Assembly: GCA_965178125.1 (NCBI GenBank)
Contig: OZ237772.1
Coordinates: forward strand, 62,001-126,000
Length of the DNA stretch: 64,000 bases
Source: Bilabrum cf. latius
Taxonomy: Eukaryota
Direction of reading: 5' to 3'
Shown: one piece after another, positions 4,432 to 64,000 of the stretch
Position numbering within the stretch: position 1 is the stretch's first letter
How the letters are laid out: each line of letters begins with the position of its first letter
Position numbers and translations under genes: made by a program
Notes under the pieces: model-generated
The model's database searches: none
What the model saw: only the letters and a program-made list of their open reading frames with translations
Told to the model about the DNA's origin: nothing

Positions 4432-7400
4432 ATGAGCCCCACATTTGTACCGTTGTTAGTTGCACTCCTGATGGTGGCAGGGGTTCCGACGGTTGTAGGG
4501 GCAGTGAACGGAACGCAGCAGAGCATTGCGGAAGGCAGCCCGATTCCAATCCTGCGAAGCTAGCCCGAGGTCAGAGACAGCCTTGGGTACGCTCTAAGCC
4601 AAGTATCGTCCATGAGAATCGTTGCAGGTGCCCCCGATGGATCTGAGGAAGAAGCCCTCGTGCTCTCGAAGGTGGGGACGAGGTGGGAGATTGACGGACT
4701 CGTTGCTCCGAACGATACGGTGCCGCAGCAAAGCACGAGGCGATTCGGCCATGCAGTTGGCTTTGAGGACCCATTCGTTTTTGTTGGTGCGCCGGAAGAC
4801 GACGAGCAGGGGCAGAATGCCGTGAGAACTGCTCAACGCACTTGCTCATATTGCAGAATGCTCCACCAGCAGTAGCATCCAAACAGCTTCAAGCATGCCA
4901 AGGCACAAAACAAATTGCAACTTTCTGCAGATCGTTTCACTCTACCGCAGGGCGCTATGTACGTGTTCACCCGGCAGCAATCGGGAGGAGTATCCTCTCG
5001 GTCGACCTTCGAGCAAATCGGCCCGCCCACCCGACCCCTCCCAATGCTGAGGCACATGCTCGGCAACGGGATCGCAGAAGCAGGTCCAGCACAGTTCGGG
5101 CGCGTGATCGAGCCTGTGCCTCGAGAGAGCCTGGGCCTCCCCGTCTGGGACGACTCCAGGCAGGGAGTCGTGATCGGGGCTCCGTTCGCTCGACTGGGGA
5201 CGGGCTTGCAGGAGGCGGGGCTGGCCGTCTACTGCGAGGTGCAGGCCGCGGGTGCATCGCACGGTGGTGCGAGGGGCCAGCAGTCGGACGGTCGATCCGA
5301 CGGGACGTGCGCCAGCTGGCAGGTCCTGACCCATCCGGAGCCGCAACTGTCCGCCTCCTTCGGAGCCGCGGCGGGTGCACTGCACGATGGCGCCCACCTG
5401 GCAATCAGCGCCCCCGGCACATCCACCAGGGGACTGCAGGGAGAGGTCCTCCTCTTCAGCAGGCGGCTCGTGTCCAGCGCGCGGGGGGCTGGCCTCCGGG
5501 TTCGATGGGCCCTGGCGCAGCGAGTCCAGCTGGCGCGGGCCTCCATCCCGATCGGGGGCATCGGGGGCATTGGGGCTGGGGCAGGGCAGCAGGTGAGGTG
5601 GAGGGAGCTGGGGCATTCATTAGCCGCTGGGACCGAGAGGGTGGCGGCCGGCGTAAAGATATTCCGGGCCGGATCCGCGGTGCCTACCGGTGGAGTCGTG
5701 GTGATGCGGCTGGTCAGAGGCGCCACAGCCAGCGCGTCTGCACTCGTCACACAGGGTACCATCCTGCCACCCGGGCTGGCAGACTCAGCCACGAATATCA
5801 CGGCGCACCCGCAGGCATACGGAGCCGGGGCACTTCCCCTGAGCCCCGCGGGCGAGGCCTCGTTCGGCGACTCGCTGGCCCTGTCCGCGTCAGACCAGTA
5901 CGTGGCTGTGGGCGCGCCGGACGACGGGGCTCCCGCGGGATCCCCGTTGCGCGGCGCCGCCATCATGTTCCGCGCAGAGACCAACGCTGTCCAGGGTGTA
6001 TTGCACGGTCGCACCATCCTGCGGCCGCCGCCGTTACCAGGCGGCCGTCCAGGCGACACCGCGGGGGCGCGATTCGGCAGCTCCATTCGGGTGACTCCCA
6101 GCTTCGCTGTGGTGGGCGCGCCCGAAGGAACAGTGTCAAACGGAAGGCTCTTTGGGTTCTCCAGCTATCTGTTGTTCCCCATCCAGGCCCCCTCTCTTGT
6201 TCCCCGCGCCGGCTCTTTCTTCGTGCCTGTGGGGGCATCACTTAATGTGACTGCCCTCACCGCGCGGTCGGAGGAACGCGCCTTTGCGACACATGACGGG
6301 TCCGCGCCGGATCCGGCCGGTGCGTTCCTGCTTGGCAACGTGCCCACCACCCGACCCGATCTCCAAGGCAGCGGGGGCGGGGTGCTCCAGGTGCCTGCGC
6401 CCAGCCGGCTGACTGCCTTGGTGACCGTGCGTGCGATCTCGGGCAATGCTTTTGAGGCCGGATCCTTCGGTCCGGAGGCAGTGGGTACCTACAACGTATC
6501 TGTACCCACCATGGGGAGGCAATGGGACCCCATCAACCGCCTGCTAATCGACTGCGGCGCGGTGAACTTGTATTGCCCGGGTACTTTCAGGCCAATGGAC
6601 GCAGTCAGGGTGTCACCCGCCCACTACACCGTCCCCGAATCGGCCCCTCCCGCCCGCAGGGAGAACCAGACCATCTGTGAGCCCCCATTCCTATGCCAGG
6701 CAGGGGTGCGCTCCCCCTGCGGCAGGCCCGTGTGCTGGCCCAGGGTGAGTAGGATGGAGGTGCGGGGGGCGAGGCCGCTGGAATCGACCACGCTGACCCT
6801 GGCTGGTATGGTCGGTGTCACAGGAGCTGGGAGCGGGCGTGTGCGGTGGACTGGCACCGATGGTGCGAATGTCACGTGGTTGCAACCGCCCGCAGGCAGA
6901 CAGGGCACTGTCCACTGGCACGCGCGGCGGTCCCCCGGCCCCTCGGAGGGCGATGTGCTAGAGGCGTGGTTCGATGCTCCCACCAACCAGCCACCGATGG
7001 GCACTGCCATCGAGGTGCACCAGTTCCTGGGTCTATCCACCCCTGTCGCTGAGGCATTCGAGGGGCGCTGGGTCTCACCAGAGCACCTGGTCTTGAGGAT
7101 GATGGGGAGGACTGGGACGGAGCTGGGGCGGGCGCTGCTGGACAGGCAGGCGGGGCTGACACCGGGCGGACGAGGGGGCGGGCTGGGGCTCGGCGCATCC
7201 ACAGCGGTGGTGATGGATGCCAGTGGCAGGCCGTTGTTGCGACCAAATGCGACGGAGGGGCTGCAGGGGGGCAGCAGTGCGAGCGGTTAGAGGGGAAGCG
7301 GCTCTGTACCCGATGGGAAGGAGTGGCTGGACGCGATGCTGTCCGCCGGGATTGTTCCCCAGGATGCAAACAGGCTGGCAGAGGCATACACGCTCGGGCC

Positions 7401-10400
7401 GTTGCGGGTAGGTCAAGGCTAGGGTCAAGGTGGGACGCAGGCTGCGTTCAGCTGCACGCTGCAGCCGGACACAGGCGTGGGCCTCCGACGGGAGGGCAAC
7501 ACGACCAGAGTGGCGTCGGGACCGGAGGTGGTCGTCAACGGGACATGGGGCGACATGGAAGCGCCTGAAGTGGTGCGGGCCACTGCCATCGACTCAGGTA
7601 GGGGCGAGCAGCCCGGCTGGCTGCCGGGTGCTGGTGATGTTCTCGTGGTGGAATTCGCCGCACCTCCCCAGCAGCTCCCTGTGGACACAGAGGAGCAGCT
7701 GCTGTCACTCCTGGACTTTGGACCCGCTGAGCTGTAGGGCTCGATCGGTGGGGCCCGATGGACAGGGGCATACTGCCAGGCTGATGCACCTCTCGCTTGT
7801 CCCGTGGCCCTGGAGATTCAGTTTCACGGTTTCCCTTCGGCAATGGCGAGGCTCGCCCATGCACAGCTCGCCAGTCGATACGATGAGATGGATGGCCTCG
7901 CACTGGATGCAGCAGACGAGCACGTGCTCTCTGAGGTGATGGACCACGAGGCAGAGTACAGCCCATGGCTTGTTGATGATAGCAGGTCTTTGGCAAAGAG
8001 CGACGCGAGTGCCTGGGCGCTGCGAGCCGGGCGACTGCGGGCCGGCGTGCTGCAGGTGAGGGTGAGGCAGGGGTCGGGTCTGCGGACTGCAGATGGACGC
8101 AGCGATGAGGCTGGATTTGGGCCGCTCGTCACGGTTGGTGGCGCGTTTGGCCCGCCCCTAGCAGCTCCTTCCCTTGTCCGCACGTCGCCAGAGTGCGCCG
8201 ATCTCCGTGTGGGCGCAGTGCTGGACCAGCCAGGGTCTGCTCCTGGGCGGCTGCAGGACCCTGTGCCATTGGCTCTGCCTCTGCAGCGGGCGTACCCTCC
8301 TCTGTCCGCTCCTAGCCTGCTGCGAGTGGACTGCGATGTGCTGGATGCCAGCTCGCTTGCAGTCCTTGGGCCTGATGCCCGGTGGCGAGCGGTGAGTCAC
8401 ATCGACCGATGGGAGCTGGTGCGCAACAGCGGCAACTCGAGCGTGGCAGTGGATGCCAGCGTAGCTGGCACCCTAGCCAGTGCCATCGCACTGCTTCCAC
8501 AGGCACCGGGCGCAAAACCACCCGAGGTCGGCGGTCTTCGCGCGGGCTTGCCTCTGATTGCGTCAGTCTCGCTAGTGCCAGGGCATGACGATCTCCCAGT
8601 CAGCGAAGCTGGATCCGGTGCCGTAGGGCTGTTCCCCATCGAAGTCAGTAAACGCATATGCCGCGGTGGACTACTGGCCCGGGTGCCGGCAGTGCCTGCC
8701 ATTGCAGCGCGGTGCCGTGCAGTGACCGGCTCGAGCGCTCTACGGGCGATCGGCAGCACCGGCCCCGGATCTACCCAAATGTAGGTGCCTGCAGCGACTG
8801 ATCACGGCATGGTTCAGGGGTGGTGGGCTGTTGGACCTGCGCCTCTGCTGTTTAGCCCCCTTGATCTAGAGGGATTCGATCCCCGGGGCTCCCGGCTTCA
8901 CACGACCGGCCGGTCCCTGCGGCCCGATGGGTTGTCCGTGGCGAGAATCTCGCCTTCGATGGGACATGGCCGGCATGCCCGAAACCTGCCACTAGAGGTG
9001 ACCATCGGCCCACTCGCAGAGGCATGGCGAGACATCATTGATACAGGTTCCTTTGAGAGTGCAGGCGGTGATCTAGTGAGGCAGAGAAGGAGGCTGGCTG
9101 CAGGCACAGGCGAGTCCGTTGGCCTCGCTTTGTCCGGCGAGTCGCGTCCATCTGGTCTGTTTGCAGAATCTACTTATTTATCACCCCCAACATGCCTACT
9201 GCTCGGAGCAGGCACTGCAGTGCAGTGCTCCATGCCCCAGGGCGGTGGCGGTGCACTGTTCACCGCGATCACGCTGGCCGGCATGCCATCGATATCGGAT
9301 GGGCGCGGTTGCCACATGCCGGGTACGCCAGCCGAGGCGGCGCTCCGATCCGGCGAAGCATGCAGGGAGCAAACGGTCGGCTACGTTGCTCCTCAGGTGC
9401 TCTTGGTTGACTCTCTGGACGGGCCCTGCGCCCGTAGCTTGCTGCTGGCGAGATCGAGGTCGGCGCTGAGCGTCAACGGCTCAACACCTGGCGGCTCTGC
9501 TCTCATCTTGGAGTCACCAGCGGTGCAGGCTGCTTGCCCTACCTCTCTCCGGGACCTGTAGGGACGATCCATCGACGATGCCACCTTGGCTGCTCTGACT
9601 GGACCAGACCCCAGCCTGCGAGGAAATGCTAGCGCTAGCACAGACCCAGGCCCAGCCGCGGGCCTGCTCCTCATTGGCACAAACTTGGGGCATGACCCAG
9701 CGATGCTGAATGTGACTACCCAGGTGAATGGGGGGTCAGTTCCTTCCAACTGCTCCTATCTTGTGCCGCACACACACATCGCTTGCGTGCTGGATGGCCC
9801 CGCCGGCGGATAGGTGGATGTTTCTGTTGAATACGCAGGCCAAGCAGCGACGCCCTCCCAACTGCCTCCTGCCCCTCCAAGAATCGATTCCGTTGAGATA
9901 GTGCGCCTCCAAGCACTCGGCAATGCCTTTGCAGATGCGATGGAGCAGTTGGAAGTGGTGCAAGCTCCTAGGGCAACCAGCAACACATCATTTGAATCCG
10001 AATCGATGGTTGGCCGAGCTAGCAGCGCAACGTCTGCCTAGTAGCTCGGTGTGATGAAGGCTGCTGCTCGCAAGTTCGCACCTGTAGCCCCATTCCCTCG
10101 AGTTCGAGCATTGGTCTCGCTGTTGGAAGCCCTGGACCTGGAGGAAGGCAAGGTGCAGAGGACAGGGGAACCGCCGGGGTGGACGGGGCCTGCTGCCGGG
10201 CCGTGGACCCCTGTCGCAGTGCCAGAGGTGGGCATACCAGGAGGAGTCGCAGGGTCGTTGCTTATAGTCCGCGGGACAGGTTTGGGTCCACGCACGTCAA
10301 ATGCGGCTCGCAGTGACACCTTGGATGGCGAATCCTGGGTAGATCGGGTCTGGACAGACGGGCAGGTGCCGTCGTGGATGCCTCGGCTGCAGATGTTCCC

Positions 10401-13400
10401 GGCCGGTCTGCTGGCCAATGCCGTGGGTCCCCTTGGAGCTGATCGATACAGGGGCATGGTATTGGAGGCAACAGCGTGCGGGGTGACCAGCGGTGGCACT
10501 GTGATGGTGTGCCTGGGTGGGCCTACGCTCGGGCGGCAGCTGGCATTCAGAGTGGTCCTTGGCGCAGCACCGGTGCCCGGGTGTCAGTCAAACAACCAGC
10601 TGGGAACTTCGAGCGACGTCGCGTTCACGAGGATCGGGACTAGCCGGCCGATGCTTCTGCCGGTAGCAGGTGTGCAGCCCAGCGAGGACATCTTCGCCTC
10701 CCCGGCCCAGGTGAACGTGCTTCGGCCAATGAGCGAGTCTCGGGCCCTGACTGCGGCGCCAGGGGTGCGGCTGGAGCACAGGCGCGCACCATACCGCCGC
10801 GTGAGAGAACGGACCCGAGTGCCGACCGAGAGCAGGCCGATACTGGTGTCAGATTGCGAGCCAGCCGCGTCGCACGTGACCCTGCTGCGGGTAGCTGCTG
10901 CCAGCCTGGCCCAAGGCATGTCCGCAGACCAGCGGACCCTCCTGGATGCGATGAGTACGCAGGCTGCAACCAGCCCAGAATTGCACCCAGATGATCAGAC
11001 AGTGTTGTCAATGGGCAGTATCACAGCAATGACAAGTGTGTTCGAACCAGCTGCAGCTGTGGATGCACGGCACGCGCAGCTGGCTGCTAGTGCGAGTATT
11101 CCACATGGGGGGAATGGGGCAGGATCGCCGGCGAGGCGGTTTCCTGACGTGGCATGGGGCACGCAAGGATACTAGTCATCGTTGGCCTCCGGTGGTCGAC
11201 TCGTGAGTCTATCTACCGGTGGATTGGTGTTCGTGAACGGAAGCCAGGATCCGGCCGTTGCCTCCGCCCACTCCGGACCCATTGCCAGCATGGACGGGGT
11301 GGATGTGCACAGGCCGATCGCAATGCCAGTCTCCATGATACAAGGGGCTGGGCCAATGTAGGCGTCAGGTCGGGCCCACTGCTACCTGTGGCCCGAGCCG
11401 ATGGTGTTCGTGCCCACGAGCCGGCACTGGGTGCTGCTCGGTGCAAGCGGGCTGTCGTTGGACGCGGTCGAGGCGGTGATGGGCGGGCAGAGCAATGCGC
11501 TGCACCCAAGTCCAGGCCCCAGTAGAGATGTTTCACTCCTTATTGACGGCTAGGTCCAGCCCCCTGGCTCGTTGAGGCTGCTGGGGGACGGCCTGCTGGA
11601 GCTGCTTAGCCCGGGCGGGGTGGGGAGGAGGCGCGCGCAGCTGATTGTCGCCGGCCGGGCCACATTCGGGGCCGTGCTGGCGTCGGCTCCACCCAGGCTG
11701 CACGGCGTGGCATCGCTCGAGGCGGAACTTCCTGACCTGGCTGCTTCTCTGGATGCCTCATCCCGATCGGATCCGACGTACGAGGCATCTGCGCCAGAGT
11801 CGTGGGGCGGTCTCGGGGCCTGGGACCCTGCAATGCGATGCAGCCGTGTAGTGTTGCTCGGGTTCGATCTGGGGGAACAGTCAGACTATGACCAGGGCAG
11901 AGCATCGGCGCTGTCAGATGCAGATTCTGATGTAGCGTGCGAGTACGTGACACGCGCGGAGTCGTTCAGGCTCGTTTGCTGCACGCGTGCGCGCCAAGGG
12001 CGTATGCAGGTGCGTGCTGCGGGGCACGTTGGCGAACTGCCCTGGTCTTGGACGGAGCTGGTGCACCGCCCCAGAGTCACTGCGGCTGCGCCATCCCTGC
12101 TGAGCACTGCAGGCGGCCAGCGGCTGGCCATCGGTGGAGAGGGGCTGCGAGCCTCGAGCACTGGTGCCTACCGCGGCAATCGAAGCGTGCACTATCGCGG
12201 CTCACAGGCTATCGTCTTGGCTGGACCGCTTGGAACGGTAGCTGCAGGTGCATATAAATCCAATGACGATATTCGTGCCCAGATGCAACCCGGCAGAGTG
12301 ACTACCTTCGGAGCTAAAGACCCGCCAGTGCTGCCAATCCTGGGCAACCTCAGCCAGCTGCATAGGCCTCCATCATCTGTCCTTGGGGATATCAACGTGA
12401 CGGACGTTGACATTCTCACGGGTCCGGTGCTCTACCAACCTGTTCAGCTAGCCATGGATCCGTGGAGCCGAGCATCCTGGGAGCAGGTCAGTCGAGTGCA
12501 CCCGTCCAATGCCTCGACAGGCGCCTGGATGTGCGGACCTGGCGCAGACCAGCAGCCGTGCCCTGCCGCGAAATGGGAGGATGTACATGCCGGACAGAGG
12601 TCAGGGGTCGTTGAGCTGCATCCTGACCATGCCAGGGAACAATTGAGGCTGGAAGGGAGGGAAGGAGACATCACGGAGTGGCAGGGGCACGTGTCGGACG
12701 AGAGCGCCATGGGCCCCGCTGCCTTTGACGGGCCGGCCTCCACGTGGAATGGGCTGGTGGTGAGGGCGCCGGAGCAGCACGGGCCCGGTCTGGAGATGCA
12801 GGTGGCGGTTGCAATCATGGCATACAGGGGGTTCGTGCGTTCCAACGTGTTCTGGGTGCCAACAGAGCCACCGACTATCAGCGGCGTGGTGCCGTCAGAG
12901 CTGCCGGTGACGGGCGGGGTCATCACTGTGAAGGGATCGGGATTCGGGACTGGGGGGGAAGTGGTGGTGCTGCAGCGCATTGCGGTGCATGAGCCGAGGG
13001 CGGGCGTAGGAGCTAGAGCTGCAGTGGTGCCAGAGGTGCTGCGAGCAGCCCTGAATGGGTTGCATCCGGGCCCAAGCGAAACCGCAGGCATGTATGATCC
13101 CGGCTGGGCAGTTGGTGCAACAGATGGAAATATCAGTGGTGCAACTAGCCCCGAAATTGCGCAGCTTTTCTGGCCTGGCGCATTCAGCGTTGGGCCAGAC
13201 GATGACAATCCCCCGACTGGTATTGCTGTGGATGGATCGGGGCGACTCGTACGGCTGCATCCAGAAGGGTCCTCGCAGGCGGTGCATGGCCCCATCGATG
13301 ATTCAACCAGCATGCCGCACTCCATGCAGGTGCACACCAGGTGCAGGGTGCTGTCCTGGAGACATGACCGGATCGACTGCGTGGCTCCCGGGGGACTGGA

Positions 13401-14292
13401 CAAACAGGCACGGGTGCTAGTGTCGGTTGGATGGACTCAATCCAACGAGTTTGGCCACCTTGCATACGGCCCTCTTCGTGTGCCCGAGGTCACCCCGGCT
13501 CCCATCAGCGTCCTGGGCAGGTCGGTCACAGTCCAGACCCCTACCCTTGCCGAGCACCTGGGGATGGGGCTGTGGATCGGAGCACTGCTCGGCCTGCTTT
13601 TGATCCTGCTGCTGGGCGGGCTGGCCTATGCCCTTGGGTGCAGGGCACGGGCGAGGATCGGTGTCACTGTGCCCCTGCCTGCCAAGGAACAGGGCGATCC
13701 ACCGGTGGCTGCGGCCAAAGACGGGATGGCAGACACGGTCTAGCTCGAGAGCAAGCGGGTGGCTCCGATGGGCGGGCTCAGGACCAACCCGAGGATGATG
13801 GACGCAAGGTCGGTGGAGATTATGCACCTGGACAATGAGATATACCGGGGGGGGGTAGGCTTGAACCGGCACAGCGATAAAAGACGCGGGATGGTGCATG
13901 GCAGCAACAGGCTCCTGGAAGGGCCCCAGGAGCACAGATCTTCTTCAATCCGGCGCACTCGCAGGCGGGAGGGCAAGACCACGGTGGTGCTTCCGGGCGT
14001 GCCTGCCTCTGATCTGCGGGAGGCCATGCAGGCGGCTCTGGGGCCCACTCAGCTGCGGGAGTCGATCGAGGAGAGGGCGCCGCTGTCCCGGCCGGGGACT
14101 GGAGTGGGATCAGCTGCGGTGGCAGGCGGGGGTAACTCGGTGTACTTGCAGGATGCCTCGCTGATGGACCGGGAGGAGCGTGCAGCGAGGGCGGCGTGGG
14201 AGGCGGCGCTGCACCGAGCAGCAAGTAGGGTGAAAGGGGCTGGGGCAGAATCGTGGCTGGAGACAGTGGCAGAGAGAGCAATGCAGCCGTGA
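4432..14292 (+). CDS. Giant type-I membrane protein (~3,240 aa): signal peptide, FG-GAP repeats, IPT/TIG-like domains, C-terminal TM helix and cytoplasmic tail
   Basis: ATG 4432 directly follows an in-frame TAA. Signal peptide MSPTFVPLLVALLMVAGVPTVVG; FG-GAP motifs (FGHAVG..VGAPEDD..GAMYVF, FGDSLALS..VAVGAPDD); TIG-like PTISGVVPSELPVTGGVITVKGSGFG; TM LWIGALLGLLLILLLGGLAYALG. One frame with 13 exonic TAG (4561, 7288, 7420, 7735, 8782, 9559, 9811, 10039, 10042, 11173, 11359, 11551, 13741). TGA 14290. Probable intron 4822-4950. Confidence 0.85.
4822..4950 (+). other. Probable spliceosomal intron (129 nt, phase 0)
   Basis: GTGAGA...CCGCAG, lower GC than flanks; removal gives the FG-GAP motif VGAPEDDEQGQNA|GAMYVF. 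Confidence 0.75.
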
Positions 14293-16036: not shown

Positions 16037-16395
16037 ACCTCTCAACTTCCACATCCGCATGTGGTCGGTGATCCGATCCCCCTGATCCGAGTCACTCGTC
16101 ACACATGCCCAACCCACACCTGCCCGGCCTGTGCCTCCCCCTTCCTATCCGCCTCATCAACCTAATGACCCCACCGATCATCTTCTCTTCCACCATTTCC
16201 TCCCCCGTTCCGGTGAACCGTCGTTCCCCCCTCCCTTTGCTCTACCCTCCCCCCCCCTAGCTGCCCTCTCTCTCTCTCTCTCACTCCTCCGCATCGCTAC
16301 GTCGCATCTGAGCCTGCTCCTCGAGCGGGTCCTGCGCCCACCGAGCGACCTCAATCTCAGAGACCTTGCTGGCCTCACCAACTCGTACGACTGCA
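16037..16395 (+). repeat. Dispersed repeat copy A (inverted relative to 21981-22427)
   Basis: Core 16284-16382 matches the reverse complement of 21994-22092 at 86/99 nt without gaps; gapped similarity extends back to about 16037. Confidence 0.8.
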
Positions 16396-22427: not shown

Positions 22428-22592
22428 GCGTCAAAAAGTCTTTCCCGAGCCGAAAATCCTGCTTGTGACTCCCTGTTATGACCTTATCTGACTAAAGTCC
22501 ACGAATATCATATACGATAAGTTTACGTGTAGCCACCGTGGAGACAGGCTTGGAATTAGCTGCACCAATGCCGTACAGGTGATCCGATTGTT

Positions 22593-37043: not shown

Positions 37044-37076
<33 letters not shown>

Positions 37077-48427: not shown

Positions 48428-48819
48428 AACCCTTTTCTTTGTCTTTGGCAAAGCTCCGATCCGATCCCGGATCACGCGATGCATGCCTGCCAACGCTGAT
48501 CCTGATCCTTCGGATCGGGTTCACATTTGCAAACTTTCACAGTTCAAGTATGCAGTAAGGATATTACATACGTCTGCACGAAAAGTAAGACTCGACCAGC
48601 AATCAGGCACATGCACACCAAACAAACACGCTGCAGAGCCGTGGCTCCTGCAGACGAGCAAGCTCGTACATCAGGCGCAATGGCTGCGTTGCCTCTCGCC
48701 GACCTCACACACTACACAAGTAGCATGCTTCATATCCTCACCATTGCACGTGCATGAGTCCAATTTCGATCGAGCCACTTGATCAGTACTGCAGTGAACT
48801 GCACCCGAAGCTGCACTCA

Positions 48820-53600: not shown

Positions 53601-56600
53601 GCGGCCGGCGGCGTAGCAGCGGCACCGCGAGTGTATGTTCCGCAAGCTCCGGCAGGCTGTCCCTGGGCGGCGGCGCCGCGGCCCCCGAGGTGCTCGCCGC
53701 CGCTGCCGCCTCCCTTCGAGGCCGGCCCACGGTGCTGTGCCTTGGCATGGTGGTGGCGGGCGCAGCCACGGACAAGGGCTCCGCGGTGCGTGCCAGAGGT
53801 CTGGCTGCCATGGGTGAGGTGCTGGAGGCGTGCGCGGGAGCGGAGCACTGGGTCGCGGGGAGGCTGGCGGGTGCACTGCACGATAGCGCGGGGGACAGGG
53901 AGGCCAGGGTCAGGGCGGCGGAGGGCGCGGCCGCCGCGCGGCGTCGAGCAGCGGATGCCGCCTGCGCGCTGCTGCTAGCGCTGGCGCTGCGGGCGTCGGA
54001 TGGGGGCGGCGACGGTGACGAGGGCGAGGGCAGCGACGGAGCCGGGGAGGGCGGGGAACGCAATTCTGGCTCCGGATCCCTTCACGAAGGAACAAGCGGG
54101 GCGGTGGCCGCCCTCCTGATGCGGCTGGACGACGAGGCCGCGGCCGTGAGGAAATCGGCTTGCAGCGCGCTGGGCTGGCTGGGGGTGGCGTGCGCGGGGC
54201 AGGCCGGCTCGCTGGCGGCGCAGGCCGCGGCGTGCGGGACCAGGGCGGCGCGTGGCGCCGCGCGTCAGGGACGTTCCGCGGGCGGACTGCAGGGGCCCAA
54301 GGGGTCGGTGGCCGCGTGGGAGGCAGGGAAGCAGCGGATCTTTTTCGATTCCGAGTCGTCGCTGCGGAGCTCCATGGGTGGCGGCGGGGCGTCGTCGGGT
54401 GCGTCGGCGGGTCGAGTGGCCCGTCCGCTCGCCCTCAGTTGTTCCCTGGGGACCTACACTCTCGAGGTGCTGACGGTGCGGGCCACGGACGGCTCCACGT
54501 CGGTGCGGCGTGTCGTCGCGGAGGCGCTGACGTCCCTGCTGATGGGACCCCGGTCAATCGAGTCGCCGTCCGCCGCCACTGGATCCACCGGTGGATCGGC
54601 GGGCGGGGACGGCTGGTCGCACGCCGGTGCCAGGTGCAGCGGCGCGGTTCGCGCGTGGGTCTCTGCGGTGCTGCCGCTGGTGCGCGACGACGACGAGGGC
54701 GTGAGGGGGGCGGCGGGTGCCATGGTGGCCAAAGCGGTGTGGGGACCGCTGGTGCACTGCACGAGCACGCTCGGTGGAGGCGCAGCGCGGAGCGGTTCCG
54801 CAGGAAGTGGCACGGGCTCGTCACACCCCTGGCCCCTTCTGTTCGCGGTGACGCAGCACGGCGGCTTGCGGAACTGTTTGCGCGGCGCCGTGGCTGCCCT
54901 CATGGCCAAAGAGGCCGGAGACACCCAGGCTGTGGGTGGTTCCGCAAGCGCCGCGCATTCCATGAAGGCCATCGTCGCGGCTGCCGTGCGGGCCGCAGAG
55001 ACGGACGACGACGCCGGAGCCGGGGCGGGGCAGGGTGCCGGCGGTGCGAGCGGGGTGGCGGCGCCGCAGAGATCGGTTCCGCTGGAACGGCTCTGGAACG
55101 CGCGGCGCCGGGCCTCCGCCCTTGGCCTGCTGGCAGAGGCGGCGACCGCCGCAGCGGCGAGACCCAAGCCGGCCGAGGCGGCCCGCACTTCCGGTTTGCC
55201 GGACGCCGATTGGGCGCTGGCCCGGCTCCGAGCAAGTGCTCCGCTACTGGTCGCAAACGAGCCGCAGACGCGTGACGCTGCCGCAGCGGGATGCGCCGGG
55301 GCTCTGCGGCTTCTGGGGGAGGCTGCGGGAGCGGCGGCCGATGCCGCTGCGTCTGCCGCCGGCGATGGCGGAGACATGTCCGGGGCCTCCAGCGGCAAGA
55401 AGAAGTCGTCATCGTCGTCGTCATCAGGTGCCGCGGCACGGCTGCCCGCTCGTCACACCGCCGCGATCGCCTCCGCACCCGCTGCGCGACGGGCGGCGGA
55501 GCGCTGGCTCGTGAGCTGGCGACTCCCGGCCGATGCCGCCGCGGCCGCCGTCGGTGCACTGCGGAACCTGGCCGCGGCGGAGGCGGCGGGCGCCGCGCGA
55601 TCAGGTTCCGCAAGAGCCGGGATCCGGCCGTGGTGGCAGTCCGCCGCGGAGGCAGCCGAGGCGGGGTGCGGCGCCGCACTGGCCACGGCCGCCGGCGGTT
55701 CCGCAAGCGCGGCGCCGATGGTGAGCAGCTCCGGCGCCAGCACAGGCTCCAGCGAACCCGACGATGAGATCGCCCAGCCGCAGCCCGCCCCCTCCGCCCG
55801 CACACTGGCAGCCTGCCTCAGGTGCCTGGGCCACCTGGCCATTCAGGGCGTGGACGAGTCGGGGGAGTCGGCGCGGCGCCGCGCAGAGCGGAACCACGTG
55901 GCCGCGGCGGTGGAGGCCGCGCGGGCCCCCATGCCTTCGCGACCGGTTGCAACCGACGCCGCCATCGCCCTCCTCGCCCCCTCCGTGGGGGCAGGCCGAC
56001 CGGTTGCAACCGCGGTGCGGGCCGCAGCGGCAGCAACCCTCGGTGCACTGTGCCTTTCGGCTCCGGACGGCTCCCCGAAGGCCGCAGCTGTGCTCATCCG
56101 GGAGGCGGGGGCGGGGGCGAGGGCCGCGCACGCCTCCCTGGGGCACGCCGGTGTGACGAGTGCGGCGGCGCACGGCCGGTCCTTCTTCGTCGGACGAGGG
56201 CAAGGGCAGGGACAGGGGCAGGGGCCGGGCAAGTCCTCCTCGGCCCCTAGACCGGAACAACTGCCCCCCGCCGCTGTCCGCAGGAACGCCGTCGCGGCTG
56301 TATGCGACATCCTGCGGCGGCACGCGCAAGCCACGGCGGGCGGGGGTGGGGCCGCTGCACTGGAGACCGTGGCCGCCGCCGGGTCATGGGACCCGCACTG
56401 GGGCGTGCGGGCCGCAGCGCTGACGTCACTCGGGTCGTTGTGCTCCAGCGGACAGGCCAAGTGGAGGAGGCCGCTGCTGCTGCGGTGCGTCGCGGCTCTT
56501 GGTGACCCGCATCCTCAGGTGCGGGCCGCTGCCACGTCAGCGCTGGAGCAGCCCGCCGCGGCGTCTCTGTTGCCGTCTTTGCTGTCCCCCGCTGTGTACG

Positions 56601-58807
56601 AGCTGACCGGATGCACGGCGCACCCGGGCATGGCGGTGGGAGTGGAACCGCTCGACGCGAAAGCTGCAGCGGGTGCCATGCGGGACGATGACGATGAGGA
56701 TGAGGATGACGATGACGGAGATGATGATGATGACGGCGATTTTGGGGCGCGAGGGGCGCGGTCTGCTTCCGGCGCCGCGCGATCGGAAGCGGAACTACCC
56801 CCGCATACGGTGCTGGGCCGGCACAGCCGCGCCCGCCGCCTCGTGGCCTACCGCGCCCTGCTCCGATTGATGCCTCACGCGGGCGTGCTGTAGGCGGCCG
56901 CCAAGCTGTTCGCGGACTCGATCGGAGCCGCCGCCCAGGGAGCCCTGAGGATGCCTCAGCGACGATCGGAGCTGCTGGTTGCAACCGCACCGTCGGGCGG
57001 GCCCTCCACTCCTCAGGGCAGGGCAGGAGCAGGGGCAGGGGCCGATCGGTCGGGTCTCATGGGTGCCTCCTTTGTGCTGGGGAACAACGCGGGGGAGGTC
57101 GGTGGCGGGTGCGCGGCGCCCTGCAGGGTAAGTTCCGCTAGCCTGCTGGCTGAAATGCGCGGCGCCGCGTACGACGCCGCGTGCGGTGCGCTCGGCCCAC
57201 AGGCCGCAGGTGCCTACGGCAAGGAGGAAGAGGACCTTGGAAATGAAGATGAAGATGGAAGCCCCGAAGATGGGGCGGGTGGTTCCCGCGGGGAAGCCGA
57301 GGGGGCGAGGGCCCTGGGAGCCGTTGGACTGCGCGGCGCCGCGGGAGAGGCCGGTTCCGCAGGCGCGGAGGCCATGCTCTGGGAGGCCCTTCTGGTGCTG
57401 GGGCTGCCAGAGGCGAAGGGTGCTCTCCTGGACGGGGGGCGCCGCGCGGGGGGAGGAGCCGGTTCCGCAGGGGACGACGACGATGGGGCGGCGGCCGCGG
57501 CGGCCGCCGATGCCGCCGCGGGTGGAGTCGCAGCGGCGAAAGCAGCGCTCATGGAGGCAGCCGGTCGCCGCGTGCTGGGCCAGCTGGCGGGAAGGCAGCT
57601 GGAGGAGCAGCTTGTTCCCTGGGCCTGCCAGCTGCTGCCCGCCCTCAGGAGGCTGCGATCGGGACCCGTGTCAAGGGCACTCGTCCGCTGGCTGGCCGGC
57701 GCCGCGGGCCGACTCGGAGCCGAAACGTTCCGCAAGGCGGCGGGGCAGCGGAAGGAAGTCGCCGCGGAGGCGCTGGGCGTCCACGAGCGGGAGAAGAGGG
57801 CCGCGGGCAGAATGCAGAGGGAGAGGGCGAGGGCGATGGCGGCCGAGGCGGCGGGCAGGGAACAAAGGGAGCAGGAGGAGGCCGCGCAGGTTCGAACCCC
57901 GGCGCCGCGCATGCCTGCCGTCACGCCCACCGCTGGGGATGCCGGCGTGGGGGCGGCGTCGGCTGCCGGCGGGCGCGCTCGTCACACCGGTGGCGTGCGG
58001 TCGCTGGCGATGCTGGGGTCTGCCATGAGCAGGGGGCTGCAGAGCGGGCTGCCCGCTGGTGTGACGAGTGCAGCCTCGGGAGCTGCGGGCGAGGAGCCGC
58101 GCAGGGCGGCGCGGCGCGGCGCCGCACGGAGTTCCGTGAAAAAGGCGCCGCGCAACGGTGGTTCCGGAAGCGGCGGGTTCGGCGCGCTTGGCGCGTTGGG
58201 CAACCTGGGTGCGGCGGCGCCGCGCAACGGTAGTTCCGCTGCCGCGATGGAGCCGGTATCCCCCGGCACCCCGGGAGCCGGTGGGGTCCCCTCCTCGGGG
58301 TCTCCGGCCGGTTCCGCAGTTGCGCAGCGCCGCGGGGTCGCGATGTCGGCGCTCAAGAGCCCGCGGCTGCGAGGTTCCGCAGCGCGCGGCGCCTCCGAGA
58401 AGGGAAGGCCAGGGACGGGCATCTCTGCCATGCCGCATTCCGTGTCGGGCGGTCTCCTTGCGGCGCTGGGCCGAAGCAGCGCCAGCGGAACCACCGCCTT
58501 GGTGGACAGTGTCGGTCCATCCACGCGCGGCGCCGGTGGGTCAGGGGGCGCCGGTGACGAGGGTGGCGAAGGTTCGTCCCAAGTTCGCCTGAGCCTCGGG
58601 GGCCGGAGCGGCCGCGGCCTGGTGGAGGCAGGGGCAGGGGCAGGGGGCGATGGGGGCAAGTGGGCCGTGAGCCCCGATGACGTGGGCAATGATGGTGTGA
58701 CGAGTGATACGGGGGGGTCTTTGGCTGGGCTGCCGGCCGAGCAGGACGAGGCCGGGGAGGAGCAGGCTGTGGCGAGCGGCGGGGCAAGTGCTCCGATGCG
58801 GGCATGA
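50684..58807 (+). CDS. NCAPD3: Condensin II HEAT subunit CAP-D3-like protein, inflated to ~2,700 aa by Gly/Ala-rich insertions
   Basis: HEAT/Cnd1-type blocks DKGSAVRARGL, RLDDEAAAVRKSA, WVSAVLPLVRD, AVRRNAVAAVCDI, DPHWGVRAAALTSL..AKWRRPLLLRCVAALGDP, RVLGQLAGRQLEEQLVP in the order recalled for CAP-D3. TAG at 51236, 52391, 56891; TGA 58805. Confidence 0.8.
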
Positions 58808-59097
58808 TGGATTCGCTCGTTAGGGTTAGGGTTAGTGGGGGGGGGGGCATGTCTGGTTGCGAATGCGTGTTTTATGATTTGTTTGTCAGTCGATGATATT
58901 GGATGTTTTATCAGCTTTGAATGTGCCCGCTGGAGTGGAACGGGCGGTGTGCGGCCAGCCAGCTGGACGCACAGCCTGTCACTGCCAGCAGCCGCTCCCA
59001 GCAATCGTCATTATGCACGATTCTGGTTTGTGTTAGGAGGCAACGAACCGGCACACAAAGTCCATAGTTGTCTGAATCAGTTGCTGAGATCGTAACT

Positions 59098-60390
59098 ATG
59101 TCGTAGTCGGGGGGCTCTGTAACCTCATACGAAGAGTGGAAGCGATAGCAGCAATCGAACGCGCAACAGCAACAGGCAGCAGTTGGCCAACAGCAAAGTG
59201 GGCTGCAGTCTAACCACGGCCACGTGATGGGTACTACGCAATTTACCCAAAGTCGGCCATCCGCTGCGGGTGCCGGGCAATTTGCGGTAGGGTACGGAGG
59301 GGTTGGTCTTCAACCAGTTCAGCATGGTCGCGCCTTGGTAGCCCCTCAGTTGGCACATAGCACCGCCGGATAGCATCACGCGCCATATGGAACTGGACCT
59401 ACATTAATATCACAGTGGCAGCAAGGGACATCGATGCCACAGGGTTCGAGCACGACTGGGCCGTCATCATCCCAAACCGCTGCCAGTTTTTCACGCGGCG
59501 TTAGCAGCTCTACCGCACCCTCGTCCAGCGCGACTAGCGCCTCTGGGCATGCACTGCTAGGTGCATCAGCTATGGGAAGCTCGTCAGCTTCTTCTGAAGC
59601 AGCGTCTGCGGGGCCTCCACCGCAGGAGCCGATAGACAAGCGATGGCGAGTGCTCGTTTCGCCGGAAGGCAAGCCCTACTGGTTCAACATTAAGGCAAAC
59701 GCAACCCAATGGGAGCTTCCCTCCGAGCAGGAAGTCCCGAAGGAACAGGCGGAGCAGATGATCGCAGACGCTCTCAAAGCAGACGAGGAGGCGTGGGCCG
59801 GGGCGGAGGAGGTCGCCACCGGCGGTTCCGGAACTGGCGCCGCGCAATCTGATGGGCTGGCCGCCGTGGAGGAGGCTGGTCGGGCGAGGGAGAGGCTCCG
59901 GAGGCGGGCCGCAGAGGCCACGCGGGTGGCTCGGGATTTCCTGCGCATGTGTGACGAGCGAGGGATCCGGAGCCTGAAAGATCTCGCTACGGCGGAAGAG
60001 GCTGCCTCCGGTGATGATGGTGCTAGCGGTGTGATGGGCGACCCTCGTTTCCTGGCGGTAGGGTCTGCCGAGCGGCGGCGGCAGGTGCTCGGTGTCCTCC
60101 TGCAGCGGCGGCGCAGCAGTGGTGGAACTGGATTGGACGGGTCTGAAAGTGCACGCAACATCACTTCAGGGAATGGGGATCATCCAGTCGGGAGAGGTGG
60201 GAATGAGGTGGCTGGTACCAATGGGACACCAGCACCAGCTCCAGCACCAGCACCGGCGACTGCAGGGGCAGGGACAGGGGCAGGGGCAGGCACTGATGAT
60301 GGAGCTGTGAAGAGTTCTTCTAGTGCTACTGCTAGCGGCAGTGCAGCTGTTTCAGACAGCAAGGGTGCCAGCACAGTCCATTCATTCTAA
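59098..60390 (+). CDS. WW-domain protein with an FF-like domain and Gln-rich N-terminus (PRP40/TCERG1-like modules)
   Basis: WW: WRVLVSPEGKPYWFNIKANATQWELP; FF-like DFLRMCDE..GDPRFLAV..ERRRQV. TAG at 59104, 59146, 59371; ends TAA 60388. Alternative start at 58921 possible. Confidence 0.75.
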
Positions 60391-60512
60391 TTCAGTGTGG
60401 CAGGAAGACTCGAGCGAGTCGAGCCAAAGACAGAGAAAATAGAACAGAGATAGAGAGGCAATCCTTGATCTGCACGCTTGACACTCCATACCAATCAAAT
60501 CCGCCGCGCGCA

Positions 60513-62366
60513 TCACTCGCTGCTCTTGCTCTTCGCCTCTGCGAGTGGCCGAGGCGGCAGCGGCCGCTCCACCGTCCGGATCACGTGCCTCAACTCGATC
60601 GGAGCAATCGTCACACCAGCACCCACGCCGGGCAGGTCCCTCGGGTCTGTCGGTCTTCGGGCCGGCGGTGCCATCCGTTGTTCCCTGGCTTGTTCCTCCC
60701 GTGCCGCGGCCTCTGCCGCAAGCCACAGTCGGCCGCTTCGGAGCACCTGCTCGGTGATCAGCCGAGCGAGCAAGTCTGCCTCTTTGGGCGCGATCGGGAG
60801 CACCTGCTCCTTCGTTTGCTCGCTCTACCGCTCCTTGTCGTCTGGCGGTGCACTCTCCGGCTGGGTGCTTCCGTCTGTTGCAGGATGTGCCTCGGCAGCC
60901 GCATGTGCATCGGCATCGGCATCGGCTTCCCCCTTCGCTTGCTCCGCTTCCCTCGATGATCGGAGCAGCTCTGCCTCTCTCGATCGGAGCAGTGCTTCTA
61001 TCTGCTTCTCTTCCTCTTCTTGATCATCCTCTTCGTCGTCTTGGTATTTCTTCTCCGCCTTGCCATCGCCACCACGCCCCCCGGCACTGCCGCTGCCGCT
61101 GCCATCTGCCGACCCATCCTACCCACCAGCCCCGAAGGCCGAACTGCCGGAAGCTACGGCACCCGATCCGGCATCACTCGTCACACCAACCACGGCCAAA
61201 GAGGCCTCTTCGCCCGCCAGGCGAGCCGCCCTCACGCGCCTGGCTTGTTCCCTGGACCGCTGCACCCCGTGTAGAGCCAGGCGACGCGCAATTCTGTTCC
61301 GCATGGCCTCCCCGGCCCTCTGCACCGCCGCCGCAGCCTGTTCTCTGGTTCCGCAAGCGGGTTGCGCGGCGCCAATCAGGTCTTCGATGGCCGCCAGGGC
61401 CAGTCTCAGGCCCACCACGGCCACCTCTCGCCTGCACCCGGCCGCCTGGCTGGCCCGAATGACGGCAACCGCTGCGTCCGCGATGGAGTGTGTGACGAGT
61501 GCGCGCCTGGGGAGTGGCTGGCGAGAGTGGTCCTCGATCATGGTTCCGCTGGGAGCCACCGGTTGCGCGGCGCCGGACATCCATCCTGGATGTTCCGCAG
61601 CGCCCCAGCGCGCCCCTGCTGCGGGCAGGGTCGGGGGCATCGGCGCGGGCAGGGGCAGGGACGGCGCGGCTAGGCCAAGGGCAGCAGCAACGGCTGCCGT
61701 CTGTCGAGCCGCATCCGGAGCCAAAATGGCGTCCGCCCAGGGAACTCGGGTATCGCAGGCTGCAGTTGCAACCGCTTGCTCGCGCTCGGCTGCCTGCCGT
61801 GCTATCGCTTTCTCCCGCTCCTATGACTCTGCTTTTGCTTTTGCGTCTGCTTCTTCCGCGGCAGCAGCTGCAGCAGCCTCCGCTGCCTTGCCTCCTTTAC
61901 CTGCCTTTCCGCTCGGTTTGCCGCCTTTCCTCTCGATGGGCTCTCCGGCATCTGCACCTGAATCTTGGGCGGTTGTTGCAGAAGCTTCAGCTAGCTATGA
62001 CTAAGCTGAGTTGTAACTTGCGGCAATACTTGCTGCGTCTTCTGAGTGAGCTCCTGATAGCAAAAAATCCACGAGAGAAGCGTTGATCCTGCTGCTCCAT
62101 GGACCTGTGCAGTCAGAACAAGCGGCATGAGCCGGCGTGGCTTCGCGATCAGCTTCGGCCTACATAGAAGTAGCAATTGCAGCGCTTGCGTTGGCCGAAT
62201 CATCCTTGGACTCCTGTTCCGCATGTCTGGGCCCCTGCTCGATACCCGGATCGTTAACCTCGACCTTGATACCAGACGCGCTGGCATCTTGAATCATGGC
62301 GGATGCTTCTCCAGCCTACCAGCATTCTCGGATGATTCGAGTTAGTTCACTTGTGCTGCCTTCCAT
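60513..62366 (-). CDS. Hypothetical Ala/Glu-rich protein (~620 aa)
   Basis: One frame with seven TAG and no TAA/TGA from ATG 62366 (or 62429) to TGA 60513. No family recognised. Confidence 0.65.
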
Positions 62367-62576
62367 TCGCACTATCGTGTAGTCTTTGTGCCAGATACAA
62401 CGGAAAACTTCGCCGTCGCCGCGCATCATGACTGCGGAACCAAACACACCCAAGTGACGTGACGTCGTCATTGTTTTTCTTGCCCGAATACCTCTGCGTC
62501 AGCATATGGCTCCACAGTCTGGTTCGACTGCTTTAGTGATACCAGGATACGGCTATTGACCATCAGTGCGACCTGC

Positions 62577-64000
62577 ATGGAGTCGAGAAGACGACGTCGT
62601 GGTGCATCGTCATCACCACGCTTTCGAGCGGAGCAGCCGGCAGGAAGAGTCCAAGCGTTGCGTAGAAGTTCATTGACATATTGTCTGAGCGCATTAAAAT
62701 TCCGCGAGCCCCGCTTGATCCACCCGCATATTGTCACTGTCCTGCTATGCTGGATGATCGCATGTGCAACTGCCGCAAAACCGGTGTGGCGACGAGCAAA
62801 CACTGGTCTTCCCAGCAGCGGGAGTCAGTACTTTGCCGACGATGATACATCGGAAATTCAGCCACCTCCGGCAGGCATGGGATGGAGGTCTGGGCACGTC
62901 CTTGCGGGTGCGGTGACGTGCGGCGGACTCGAGAGCGGGACCACGGCTGGCAGTCGCAGACTGTCGGACCCACGCACTGACCCAAGAATAACACAAGATC
63001 AAGCATCGAATACCGATACAAATCGTGCACTCCAGTCTCCATCGAATCCACACGGAGACAGCCCAACCCTGTGGCTGCTCGCGTTCGGCGGCCAGGTGGG
63101 CGATGGCCCCCACGCCCTGCGATCAGACCTGCAGGTGGCCCGGTACTCGATCGGAGCAAGCGGTGAGGCATCACAGACAGAAAATGCCGATCGCACGGGC
63201 GATGCATCGCGCGGTGGCGCATCGCAGCTGGACTGGCTTGTCCCCGAAATAGTGGGGGATCCCGCAGCGTCGAGGGGGCTTTGCTCCCCTGGGAGCCCGC
63301 GAACCTTCGCCGAAGGTTCGTGCGAGCCGGTCCCATCTGCAAGGGCGTTCGCGGGCGGGGGCAGCAGGGGCAGCGAGATGGTCGTGTTCGGCGGGCTGGG
63401 TGCTGGCGGTGACCTGGGTGACCTGTGGAGTGCCAGAGTGCTAGAGCGAGAGGTGCAGGTGCAGGACGATGTCACGATGGCAGCAGCGTCAGCAGCAGCC
63501 GGAGGCAGGAATGGGGATGGTGGAAGCACGAGGCCCCCAGAAGAGGAAGAACATGGTGGTGCTCGCCGGTCCTCCACCACACCGCAGGGTGGTCAACGTG
63601 AGGGCAGCGGCAGTGTGCAGGTGGCCTGGACGCGACTTTGGCCACCGCAAGGAGCACTCGTCACACCACTGATGGATGCGTGCCAGGACGGACCAGCTGA
63701 CGCGAACCGAGCGGTTTCAAGGGGTCTTCTGCTCTGCCCTAGGCCTCGGCGGGAGGCTGTCGTGGCCGTGTGGGAGGGCATGGTGTTCGTGGCCGGCGGG
63801 GGCTGGTCCCTGGGAGCAGCGATCGGGCCAGTGCCTGGGAGCACCAGCACGTCCGGTCTTTGGGGTGAGCTGGGGGCAGGGGGTGGCGCGTTTGTTCCCC
63901 AGCCCACTCAGGTGGAGGCTGGGCCAGGGCTGTGGGTATGGACGGACGGTTGGTCTGCCGGATCGGGTGCATCGCACGATGGTGCTAGCGGCCAGTGGCA
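62577..64000 (+). CDS. Kelch-repeat protein (partial, runs off the window)
   Basis: Frame open from ATG 62577 to window end; Kelch-like WRSGH..LLAFGG, PSARAFAGG..MVVFGG..DLGDLW, PRPRREA..MVFVAGG. Confidence 0.7.
   Translation, partial: MESRRRRRGASSSPRFRAEQPAGRVQALRRSSLTYCLSALKFREPRLIHPHIVTVLLCWMIACATAAKPVWRRANTGLPSSGSQYFADDDTSEIQPPPAGMGWRSGHVLAGAVTCGGLESGTTAGSRRLSDPRTDPRITQDQASNTDTNRALQSPSNPHGDSPTLWLLAFGGQVGDGPHALRSDLQVARYSIGASGEASQTENADRTGDASRGGASQLDWLVPEIVGDPAASRGLCSPGSPRTFAEGSCEPVPSARAFAGGGSRGSEMVVFGGLGAGGDLGDLWSARVLEREVQVQDDVTMAAASAAAGGRNGDGGSTRPPEEEEHGGARRSSTTPQGGQREGSGSVQVAWTRLWPPQGALVTPLMDACQDGPADANRAVSRGLLLCPRPRREAVVAVWEGMVFVAGGGWSLGAAIGPVPGSTSTSGLWGELGAGGGAFVPQPTQVEAGPGLWVWTDGWSAGSGASHDGASGQW

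Follow-up and report, generated by a model that had tools for sequence, protein, structure and literature searches.

A 12-nt DNA word, CACTCGTCACAC, is scattered in exact copies over a 64-kb stretch of the Bilabrum cf. latius assembly (contig OZ237772.1, positions 62,001 to 126,000; these 64,000 nt are referred to as the window), where it is a real signal at the level of the DNA, independent of strand and reading frame. It belongs to a small set, in which it is the sharpest of the non-palindromic words; the set further comprises CGGTTGCAACCG, GCGCGGCGCC with GTTCCGC, CCACCGGTGG and weaker words. These words are distributed together over the genes and impose residues on the proteins encoded there. 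The main words are found genome-wide in a lineage, and the residues encoded by the words are better conserved than their surroundings. In the following, CTCGTCACAC is the 10-nt core of the main word and CGCTCGTCACAC the CGC variant of the 12-mer.

The core is present in 24 exact copies in the window, 14 on the forward strand and 10 on the reverse strand (Table 1), compared to 0.23 on average and at most 2 in 100 dinucleotide-preserving shuffles. The full 12-mer is found in 16 exact copies, with 0.01 expected. When up to two mismatches were allowed, 39 matches to the 12-mer were obtained versus 5.3 expected (16 exact, 9 with one and 14 with two mismatches); five of the one-mismatch copies correspond to CGCTCGTCACAC. 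The octamer CGTCACAC occurs 25 times in the window, and in 24 of these cases it lies within the main word. For the codon-aware nulls, we used gene models derived from frames read with genetic code table 6, which cover 84% of the window, and performed three codon-preserving shuffles of 300 replicates each; the intergenic copy was left unshuffled in these and adds approximately 1 to each mean. The core reached a mean of 1.56 copies (maximum 4) when synonymous codons were shuffled within genes, 1.06 (maximum 3) when the codon order was shuffled, and 1.10 (maximum 3) when the codon order was shuffled in blocks of 30 codons. Markov simulation of the same count gave 0.2 copies at order 3 and 1.54 at order 5. 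All 24 copies listed by the original prediction, which was made from the letters of the window, were recovered; its estimate of about 16 extensions to the 12-mer agrees with the 16 counted, its C(A/G) variation with the five copies that read CGCTCGTCACAC, and its expectation of well under one copy with the dinucleotide shuffles. The enrichment stands under codon-aware and Markov-aware nulls alike.

The word is also strikingly exact. For the core, 24 exact copies compare with 6 one-mismatch copies, although 30 single variants are possible, and six of the nine one-mismatch 12-mers deviate at position 2, which is the edge of the word (small numbers). The 40 nt on either side are different in every copy; information content is at background outside positions −4 to +1, resulting in the consensus C(G/T)C(A/G)-CTCGTCACAC-(C>G>A) with fixed word boundaries. 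We found no target-site duplication or microhomology beside the copies, and neither terminal repeats nor similarity past approximately 14 nt among them. The unique flanks and the lack of target duplication indicate a dispersed short word rather than a repeat family, and, with the drop in information content, rule out miniature inverted-repeat transposable elements (MITEs), short interspersed nuclear elements (SINEs), introner elements and a transposon remnant as the source. Contigs from public sequencing runs were aligned to positions 41000–60999 of the window; the runs were considered to be RNA by guess only, and one of them (X5) was marked 'probably DNA'. Run contigs from other studies cover 8 of the word copies with 0 differences, and this, together with the recurrence of the words in an independent metagenome (see below), rules out an assembly artefact. 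Neither of the two origins considered in the original prediction, a single repeat family or an artefact, thus applies. Rfam and tRNA scans of the window returned no matches, and blastp among the genes carrying the word revealed no paralogy.

Within the coordinates of the gene models we located 23 of the 24 copies, one of them intronic, and coding frames hold 22. The 23 copies use all five stop-free combinations of frame and orientation: antisense (G)VTS (10 copies), sense LVT (4), sense HSSH (4), sense xRHT (3, including the intronic copy) and antisense CDE (2). The antisense frame that would read TGA is used by none of the 23. With respect to the coding strand, 11 copies are sense and 12 antisense, and the giant frame at 49715–58807(+) by itself contains four of each, in three phases. 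Along the window the strands follow the series ++--+++-++-++-++-+---+-+, in which + and − are interleaved, and a single close inverted pair is formed by the copies at 57978(+) and 58059(−). The word tends to lie on the locally C-rich strand (mean (C−G)/(C+G) of 0.17 over ±60 nt; Wilcoxon p = 0.005).

The spelling of the word points in the same direction as its frames. It contains rare codons, with AGT comprising 9% of the Ser codons and CGT 8% of the Arg codons, and 8 of the 14 VTS tripeptides are spelled GTGACGAGT, versus 1.6% predicted by codon usage. Each of the five tripeptides is commoner than amino-acid frequencies predict, by approximately the number of word copies. The rare codons, the fixed spelling of VTS and the tripeptide excess show that the DNA word imposes residues, and that it reflects neither silent re-coding nor a peptide motif; a short linear peptide motif is ruled out by the five frame classes combined with one fixed codon set. 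The use of the frames is unequal, with (G)VTS in 10 of 23 copies, and the protein thus acts as a filter on the places in which the word can stand. The readings LVT, VTS, HSSH, RHT and CDE given in the original prediction were confirmed against the gene models, and its view of a DNA-level signal free of strand and frame is borne out by the frame classes, the rare codons, the tripeptide excess and the codon-aware nulls. It had also placed the copy at 41242 in an intron and that at 16095 in intergenic DNA; the former lies in a GT..AG intron (41235–41366), next to which a contig piece ends at 41367, and the latter is outside all long frames.

Companion words were identified in Markov and codon-shuffle screens, and five words were run through the three codon-preserving nulls. 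Four of the five far exceed anything reached in the shuffles; for CCACCGGTGG the case is marginal, with 5 copies compared to a null mean of about 0.2 and 2–3 copies in the richest shuffle. The screened companions include GGTTGCAACC with 11 copies, 8 of which extend to CGGTTGCAACCG (null mean 0.04–0.17), GCGCGGCGCC with 39 copies (2.0–2.8) and GGTTCCGC with 30 copies (3.3–4.2). GTTCCGC occurs 49 times in the window, and the weaker words TGTTCCC(Y), GCTCCGATC and GGTGCAGCG were enriched in the block-shuffle screen alone. Palindromic cores are present in three companions, namely GGTTGCAACC, CCACCGGTGG and the GGCGCC inside GCGCGGCGCC. Exactness extends to GGTTGCAACC, with 11 exact versus 4 one-mismatch copies; three of the four one-mismatch copies of CGGTTGCAACCG deviate at an outermost position and the fourth one position inward (small numbers). 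Each word spans two to six classes of frame and orientation, and the preferred class codes for small residues (GAAR, GSA, SGT, VAT, STGG).

The members of the set are arranged with respect to each other. GTTCCGC is found 9–28 nt from GCGCGGCGCC, in either orientation and on its GCGC side, in 30 of the 39 copies, compared to 16% in the null. In the stretch where the set is densest (50.9–58.8 kb; Table 1), gaps of less than 45 nt between sites are avoided (2 versus 11.3 expected) and gaps of 45–120 nt are favoured (25 versus 13 expected); no sequence periodicity beyond codon-scale lags was found in this stretch. Word density per gene ranges from 0–1 per kb in five frames up to 7.9 per kb in the frame 49715–58807, the words being densest in frames rich in Ala, Gly, Ser and Arg, and the density of the main word covaries with that of the other words (Spearman 0.62).

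To place the words beyond this locus, metagenome contigs were scanned with a 14-mer from the window, giving at least 118 loci. Among the matches listed, five contigs of one metagenome (L005, L008, L010, L026 and L099; 20.45 kb) carry main words, and these five do not resemble the window at either the nucleotide or the translated level. Together they contain 18 copies of the main word (5 by ascertainment), 3 of GGTTGCAACC and 2 of GCGCGGCGCC with GTTCCGC adjoining, where triplet shuffles of the same contigs gave 0.05, 0.03 and 0.06, respectively. A single GGTTGCAACC is present in the 653 kb of the remaining 113 loci among the matches listed. The five contigs lack CCACCGGTGG and two of the weaker words. 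In L008 and L099 one frame is free of TGA over the whole contig, and in L005, L010 and L026 the longest TGA-free frame is approximately twice the longest standard frame. As five unrelated contigs carry the main words, these words belong to the genome of a lineage and not to this locus. In L008 (870–920 and 1650–1710) and L010 (625–650) the word stands in tandems of 2–4 units with a period of 15 nt, those of L008 lying inside its TGA-free frame.

Several further observations were made in these scans. L010 contains a duplication of approximately 460 nt (1–460 and 3814–4270, approximately 97% identical) with two word copies intact in both halves and one substitution directly beside a word. In a different metagenome, contig L109 carries two exact 12-mers with unique flanks, at 475 and 3723, within 4.4 kb; this contig could be another carrier, although its stop-codon pattern differs from that of the window. 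The match in L013 (13.5 kb, GC 0.42) is a chance match of the scan; one of its frames runs for 4258 codons without TGA, versus 263 under the standard code, and the contig is probably from another organism with reassigned TAA and TAG. The unrelated L025 (GC 0.48) has a satellite of GTCACAC type at 1900–2450, with units of approximately 14–15 nt and three matches to the 14-mer, which we take as coincidence. A 14-mer scan of viral contigs gave at least 117 loci, with a single copy each among the matches listed. An origin from a giant virus is ruled out by these single-copy viral loci among the matches listed, by a protein search of viral contigs that found no relative, and by the cellular-type genes and introns of the window.

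Two orthologs were found in public assemblies, P0001 (88% identical) and P0002 (85–91% identical). The alignments include three main-word copies, and the peptide is retained at each of them (HSSH at 47611, GVTS at 39394 and RVTS at 38917); for the latter two the flanks differ in the ortholog while the peptide stays. Over 20 word sites in P0001 and P0002, identity was found for 69 of the 70 residues encoded by words, versus 932 of 1040 (90%) elsewhere (Fisher p = 0.011). The copies are older than the split from these relatives and yet exact at synonymous positions, from which we infer that a constraint would act on the DNA itself. A more distant homolog, P0003 (36% identical), shares a conserved block in which one GGTTGCAACC copy is located, with RLQPF in the window and RLAPF in P0003; as the copy lies inside the shared block, it arose by substitution. 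P0003 has no counterpart of a segment containing two copies of GTTCCGC and one GGCGCC. For the giant frame, a near-length search yielded no orthologs, and a representative search returned four weak matches, all at the C-terminal end (HEAT-repeat match).

The spliced introns identify the host, whose DNA is GC-rich, as a eukaryote. The evidence for splicing is a joint in the run contigs (49673/49874) that omits 200 nt with CT..AC ends, equivalent to GT..AG on the minus strand; it is present in runs X5, X6 and X7 (two studies) and is not shown by X1, which has a depth of 0 there. The intron that holds the word copy at 41242 (Table 1) is supported by a piece of X7 record 24 that ends exactly at 41367, and by the frame and the similarity to P0003, both of which run across it. 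Pfam matches in the window comprise RCC1, ankyrin, FG-GAP/TIG, HEAT, dual-specificity phosphatase, acid-lipase fold and thioredoxin domains, and the nearest clusters of the RCC1 frame are mostly eukaryotic. No methyltransferase was found in the window by Pfam.

Frames with a coding-like GC content at third codon positions are broken by single TAG codons, never by TGA. Reading with table 6 opens frames of 3328, 3030, 2049, 1461 and 1253 codons, and 16 TGA-delimited frames contain about 109 in-frame TAG and 14 TAA codons (examples in Table 1). The TAG at 49315–49317(−) lies inside contigs that cover 48577–49673 gap-free in three runs. The nucleophile elbow of the lipase reads G-F-S-TAG-G in the window; we take the elbow of the family to be G-x-S-Q-G, so that TAG falls at the Q position. 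At two TAG codons of the window, the residue aligned in ortholog P0001 is Q. In this host TAG is Gln and TGA the only stop, and TAA is probably Gln too; codes of this type (table 6) have been described before. With TAG read as Gln, nearly all word copies fall in very long coding frames. The co-distributed set, the reading of TAG as Gln and the unequal use of frames go beyond the original prediction.

Table 1. Positions in the window of the main-word copies, the companion word GGTTGCAACC and selected features of the host DNA.
Feature	Position (strand)	Form or extent	Context	Peptide or remark
Main word	5743–5752 (+)	12-mer from 5741	sense, frame 4306–14292(+)	LVTQ
Main word	16095–16104 (+)	12-mer from 16093	outside all gene models and long frames	GC about 0.53
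Main word	29525–29534 (−)	12-mer to 29536	antisense, frame 28015–30144(+)	GVTS
Main word	34370–34379 (−)	10-mer only	antisense, ankyrin gene 32011–38160(+)	RVTR
Main word	35173–35182 (+)	CGC variant	sense, ankyrin gene 32011–38160(+)	LVTR
Main word	38917–38926 (+)	12-mer	antisense, gene 38472–41327(−)	RVTS; peptide kept in ortholog P0002
Main word	39394–39403 (+)	12-mer	antisense, gene 38472–41327(−)	GVTS; peptide kept in P0002
Main word	41242–41251 (−)	12-mer to 41253	inside intron 41235–41366(−)	5 nt before 3' AG
Main word	42356–42365 (+)	CGC variant	antisense, phosphatase gene 42076–45837(−)	GVTS
Main word	42445–42454 (+)	CTC variant	antisense, phosphatase gene 42076–45837(−)	GCDE
Main word	43492–43501 (−)	12-mer	sense, phosphatase gene 42076–45837(−)	HSSH; run contig 42551–45757, 0 differences
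Main word	47611–47620 (+)	12-mer	sense, thioredoxin-domain gene 46241–48427(+)	HSSH; peptide kept in ortholog P0001
Main word	51880–51889 (+)	12-mer	sense, giant frame 49715–58807(+)	HSSH
Main word	52560–52569 (−)	12-mer	antisense, giant frame 49715–58807(+)	GVTS
Main word	54817–54826 (+)	10-mer only	sense, giant frame 49715–58807(+)	GSSH
Main word	55449–55458 (+)	CGC variant	sense, giant frame 49715–58807(+)	ARHT
Main word	56151–56160 (−)	12-mer	antisense, giant frame 49715–58807(+)	GVTS
Main word	57978–57987 (+)	CGC variant	sense, giant frame 49715–58807(+)	ARHT
Main word	58059–58068 (−)	12-mer	antisense, giant frame 49715–58807(+)	GVTS
Main word	58695–58704 (−)	12-mer	antisense, giant frame 49715–58807(+)	GVTS
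Main word	59949–59958 (−)	CGC variant	antisense, frame 58921–60468(+)	MCDE
Main word	61177–61186 (+)	12-mer	antisense, frame 60513–62462(−)	GVTS
Main word	61490–61499 (−)	12-mer	sense, frame 60513–62462(−)	LVTH
Main word	63657–63666 (+)	12-mer	sense, frame 62463–63998(+)	LVTP
GGTTGCAACC	starts 6878, 28717, 39540, 40261, 47143, 51025, 51079, 52036, 55945, 56002, 56977	span 6878–56986
Densest word-set stretch	50900–58807	counts in frame 49715–58807: 28 GCGCGGCGCC, 29 GTTCCGC, 6 GGTTGCAACC, 1 CCACCGGTGG, 8 main-word copies	over frame 49715–58807
Intron	41235–41366 (−)	132 nt	GT..AG, GTGAGC...CAG ends	one word copy
TAG/TAA sense codons (examples)	49315–49317(−), 40947–40949(−), 26612(−), 23745(−)

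As a tentative explanation, drawn from analogous systems and with somewhat less than an even chance of being correct, we propose that sequence-specific readers of DNA, combined with a bias in repair or conversion, create and keep the words. Each word would be the target of sequence-specific DNA-binding or DNA-modifying proteins, and a bias of repair or gene conversion that depends on this recognition would keep the word exact, as proposed for HIP1, the highly iterated palindrome of cyanobacteria. Molecular drive of this kind would write words where the residues are harmless, such as small residues in low-complexity protein segments, and selection at the protein level would then decide which word sites survive. 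In its widest form, which we regard as doubtful, the proposal would be a multi-word, self-writing system in a cellular eukaryote, in which readers and biased repair or conversion would keep at least five exact words inside genes, overriding the protein. This would be a nuclear counterpart of HIP1 and of the bacterial DNA uptake sequences (DUS), possibly serving self-recognition or recombination control, or representing pure meiotic drive.

A number of points weigh against drive by readers and biased repair. The reader protein, the DNA modification and the repair bias are all postulated, and a non-palindromic site of 12 bases is long for a methyltransferase. The genome-wide spread is seen in one window and in 20 kb of contigs chosen for holding the word, and conservation was measured at the protein level, at 20 word sites in 2 genes. 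Word density varies approximately tenfold or more among genes and tracks GC (Spearman 0.62 for the other words, 0.40 for the main word), which is not predicted by uniform drive. The gene models leave 16% of the window uncovered, and only 3 of the 165 copies of the words are located there; for the main word alone, 2 of 24 non-coding copies represent no significant shortage. The tandems in the related contigs read as a pentapeptide, (GVTSD)n. Finally, the share of (G)VTS among the frames is such that protein-level selection takes part.

The words could alternatively be functional binding sites maintained by ordinary selection, without drive, for one or more abundant architectural or chromatin proteins acting in gene bodies in folding, replication or recombination control. 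The maintenance of exact copies and the conservation of word-coded residues in relatives would both fit such sites. The minimum spacing of approximately 45–55 nt is compatible with steric exclusion between bound proteins, the positioning of GTTCCGC at 9–28 nt from GCGCGGCGCC in either orientation resembles a composite site, and the palindromic cores of several words are as in dimer sites. However, up to 8 sites per kb in one coding frame, overriding the protein, would be a heavy cost. Densities that differ tenfold or more between neighbouring genes and copies in exons rather than intergenic DNA also fit poorly, and binding itself is predicted only. We consider binding without drive unlikely.

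Less probable still is the insertion of short DNA at breaks from a fixed template, for example by a reverse transcriptase with an internal template or as filler from an abundant element, followed by amplification through slippage into low-complexity coding DNA. There are as many surplus tripeptides as word copies, which is what an addition of residues would give, the 12-mer preserves the reading frame, and related contigs carry 2–4 tandem units of 15 nt. The two GTTCCGC and the GGCGCC in the segment absent from P0003, and the location of the word on the locally C-rich strand, could be explained in the same way. Insertion would, however, be expected to leave target duplications or microhomology, of which there are none, and boundaries in variable register, whereas those of the word are fixed. 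At least one word copy was made by substitution in a conserved block, and all three tested copies of the main word were already in the 85–91%-identical relatives and are still exact, so that copying alone is insufficient.

An action of the words in RNA, as sites for an RNA-binding protein or small RNAs on sense and antisense transcripts, is very improbable. Most copies are in regions with gap-free cover by run contigs and one is near a 3' splice site, but sense and antisense copies are present in near-equal numbers (11 and 12), often within one gene, there is an intergenic copy, three of the companions are palindromes and only 1 of 24 copies is intronic. A splice or branch-point signal, an idea prompted by the copy at 41242, 5 nt before the AG, and by the copy at 5743, which reads CACAG, is ruled out by the gap-free contig regions that hold most copies, the 12 antisense copies and the single intronic one; the second verified intron (49674–49873) has no word copy. 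It is scarcely credible that the word arises as a side effect of the amino acids and codons used in low-complexity proteins, or of a short peptide motif, GVTS for instance: this would agree with the share of (G)VTS (10 of 23), the (GVTSD)n of related contigs and the high density in Ala/Gly/Ser/Arg-rich frames, but the codon-preserving nulls give at most 4 copies versus 24, five frame classes are used, one codon set accounts for 8 of 14 VTS versus 1.6% expected, and intronic and intergenic copies exist.

Several known systems resemble the word in part. Uptake sequences, the DUS of Neisseriaceae (10–12 nt) and the uptake signal sequences (USS) of Pasteurellaceae, are likewise exact, non-palindromic words of 10–12 nt that are hugely over-represented on both strands, in any frame and in a lineage-specific way; an exact word of 9–12 nt in hundreds-fold excess on both strands is also what we find here. 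DUS accumulate by drive and often stand as inverted pairs in intergenic terminators, whereas here 22 of the 24 copies are in coding frames, with one close inverted pair. The host is moreover a eukaryote with a spliced GT..AG intron and a nuclear-type code in which TAG is Gln, not a competent bacterium, no DNA uptake or ComP-type receptor is known, and several different words co-occur. A study of DUS attributes their accumulation to transmission bias and not to coding needs (PMC3630211).

The HIP1 sequence (GCGATCGC) and the alternate HIPs of cyanobacteria share with the present set the hyper-abundance of exact words over genes and the existence of several alternative words; three words here have palindromic cores, and one-base deviations lie at the edge of the word (small numbers here). 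An article by Elhai reports that the one-base deviations of HIP1 concentrate at its edge and proposes a methylation-dependent repair model (PMC4390886). In contrast to HIP1, the main word CACTCGTCACAC is non-palindromic and 12 nt long and its host is eukaryotic, and the cyanobacterial HIPs go with orphan methyltransferases. Chi is also a short, asymmetric, over-represented word, read on the DNA by a repair machine. It is co-oriented with replication, whereas strand polarity is absent here (+ and − interleaved, 14:10), and to our knowledge eukaryotes are without RecBCD or AddAB. Both analogies had been drawn in the original prediction; that with uptake sequences holds for the statistics only, and that with Chi fails on polarity. 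Dispersed repeats such as MITEs, SINEs and introner elements have many copies spread through genes and introns as well, but differ in the features described above, as there is no similarity past approximately 14 nt, terminal repeats or target duplication here. Interstitial telomere-like repeats have a variable register and long arrays at chromosome ends; the word has fixed boundaries, and in a relative it occurs in short 15-nt tandems.

Searches of the literature for the main word, its complement and four companions as exact strings returned only primers and unrelated sequences; CCACCGGTGG and three weaker words were not searched, and a description in a genome paper may exist. A search on the concept of such words returned nothing relevant. 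We know of no such word system in a cellular eukaryote; genome-wide DNA words as such are known, and what is new here is the cellular-eukaryote host and the set of several words. In bacteria, exact genome-wide words such as uptake sequences, Chi and HIP1 revealed machines that read DNA or biases in transmission. If a nuclear genome indeed carries a conserved set of words that dictates residues, an unknown sequence-specific process would shape its genes and help to build low-complexity proteins; candidate processes are a family of DNA-binding proteins, a repair bias linked to modification, and meiotic drive. The exact words are direct handles for pull-down, methylation calling and transmission tests.

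Two features of the coding DNA in the window are repetitive in themselves. At 18804–20450, a tandem array of 54-bp units (30.5 copies, 97% alike) encodes 18-residue repeats rich in Thr, Ser, Pro and Ala; it is part of the 1461-codon FG-GAP protein, which has a C-terminal membrane span and looks mucin-like. The segment at 56680–56735 is acidic and rich in GAT, GAC and GAG, and aligns, at several mismatches, with short pieces of many different X1 contigs, which makes it a dispersed repeat of low-complexity coding DNA.

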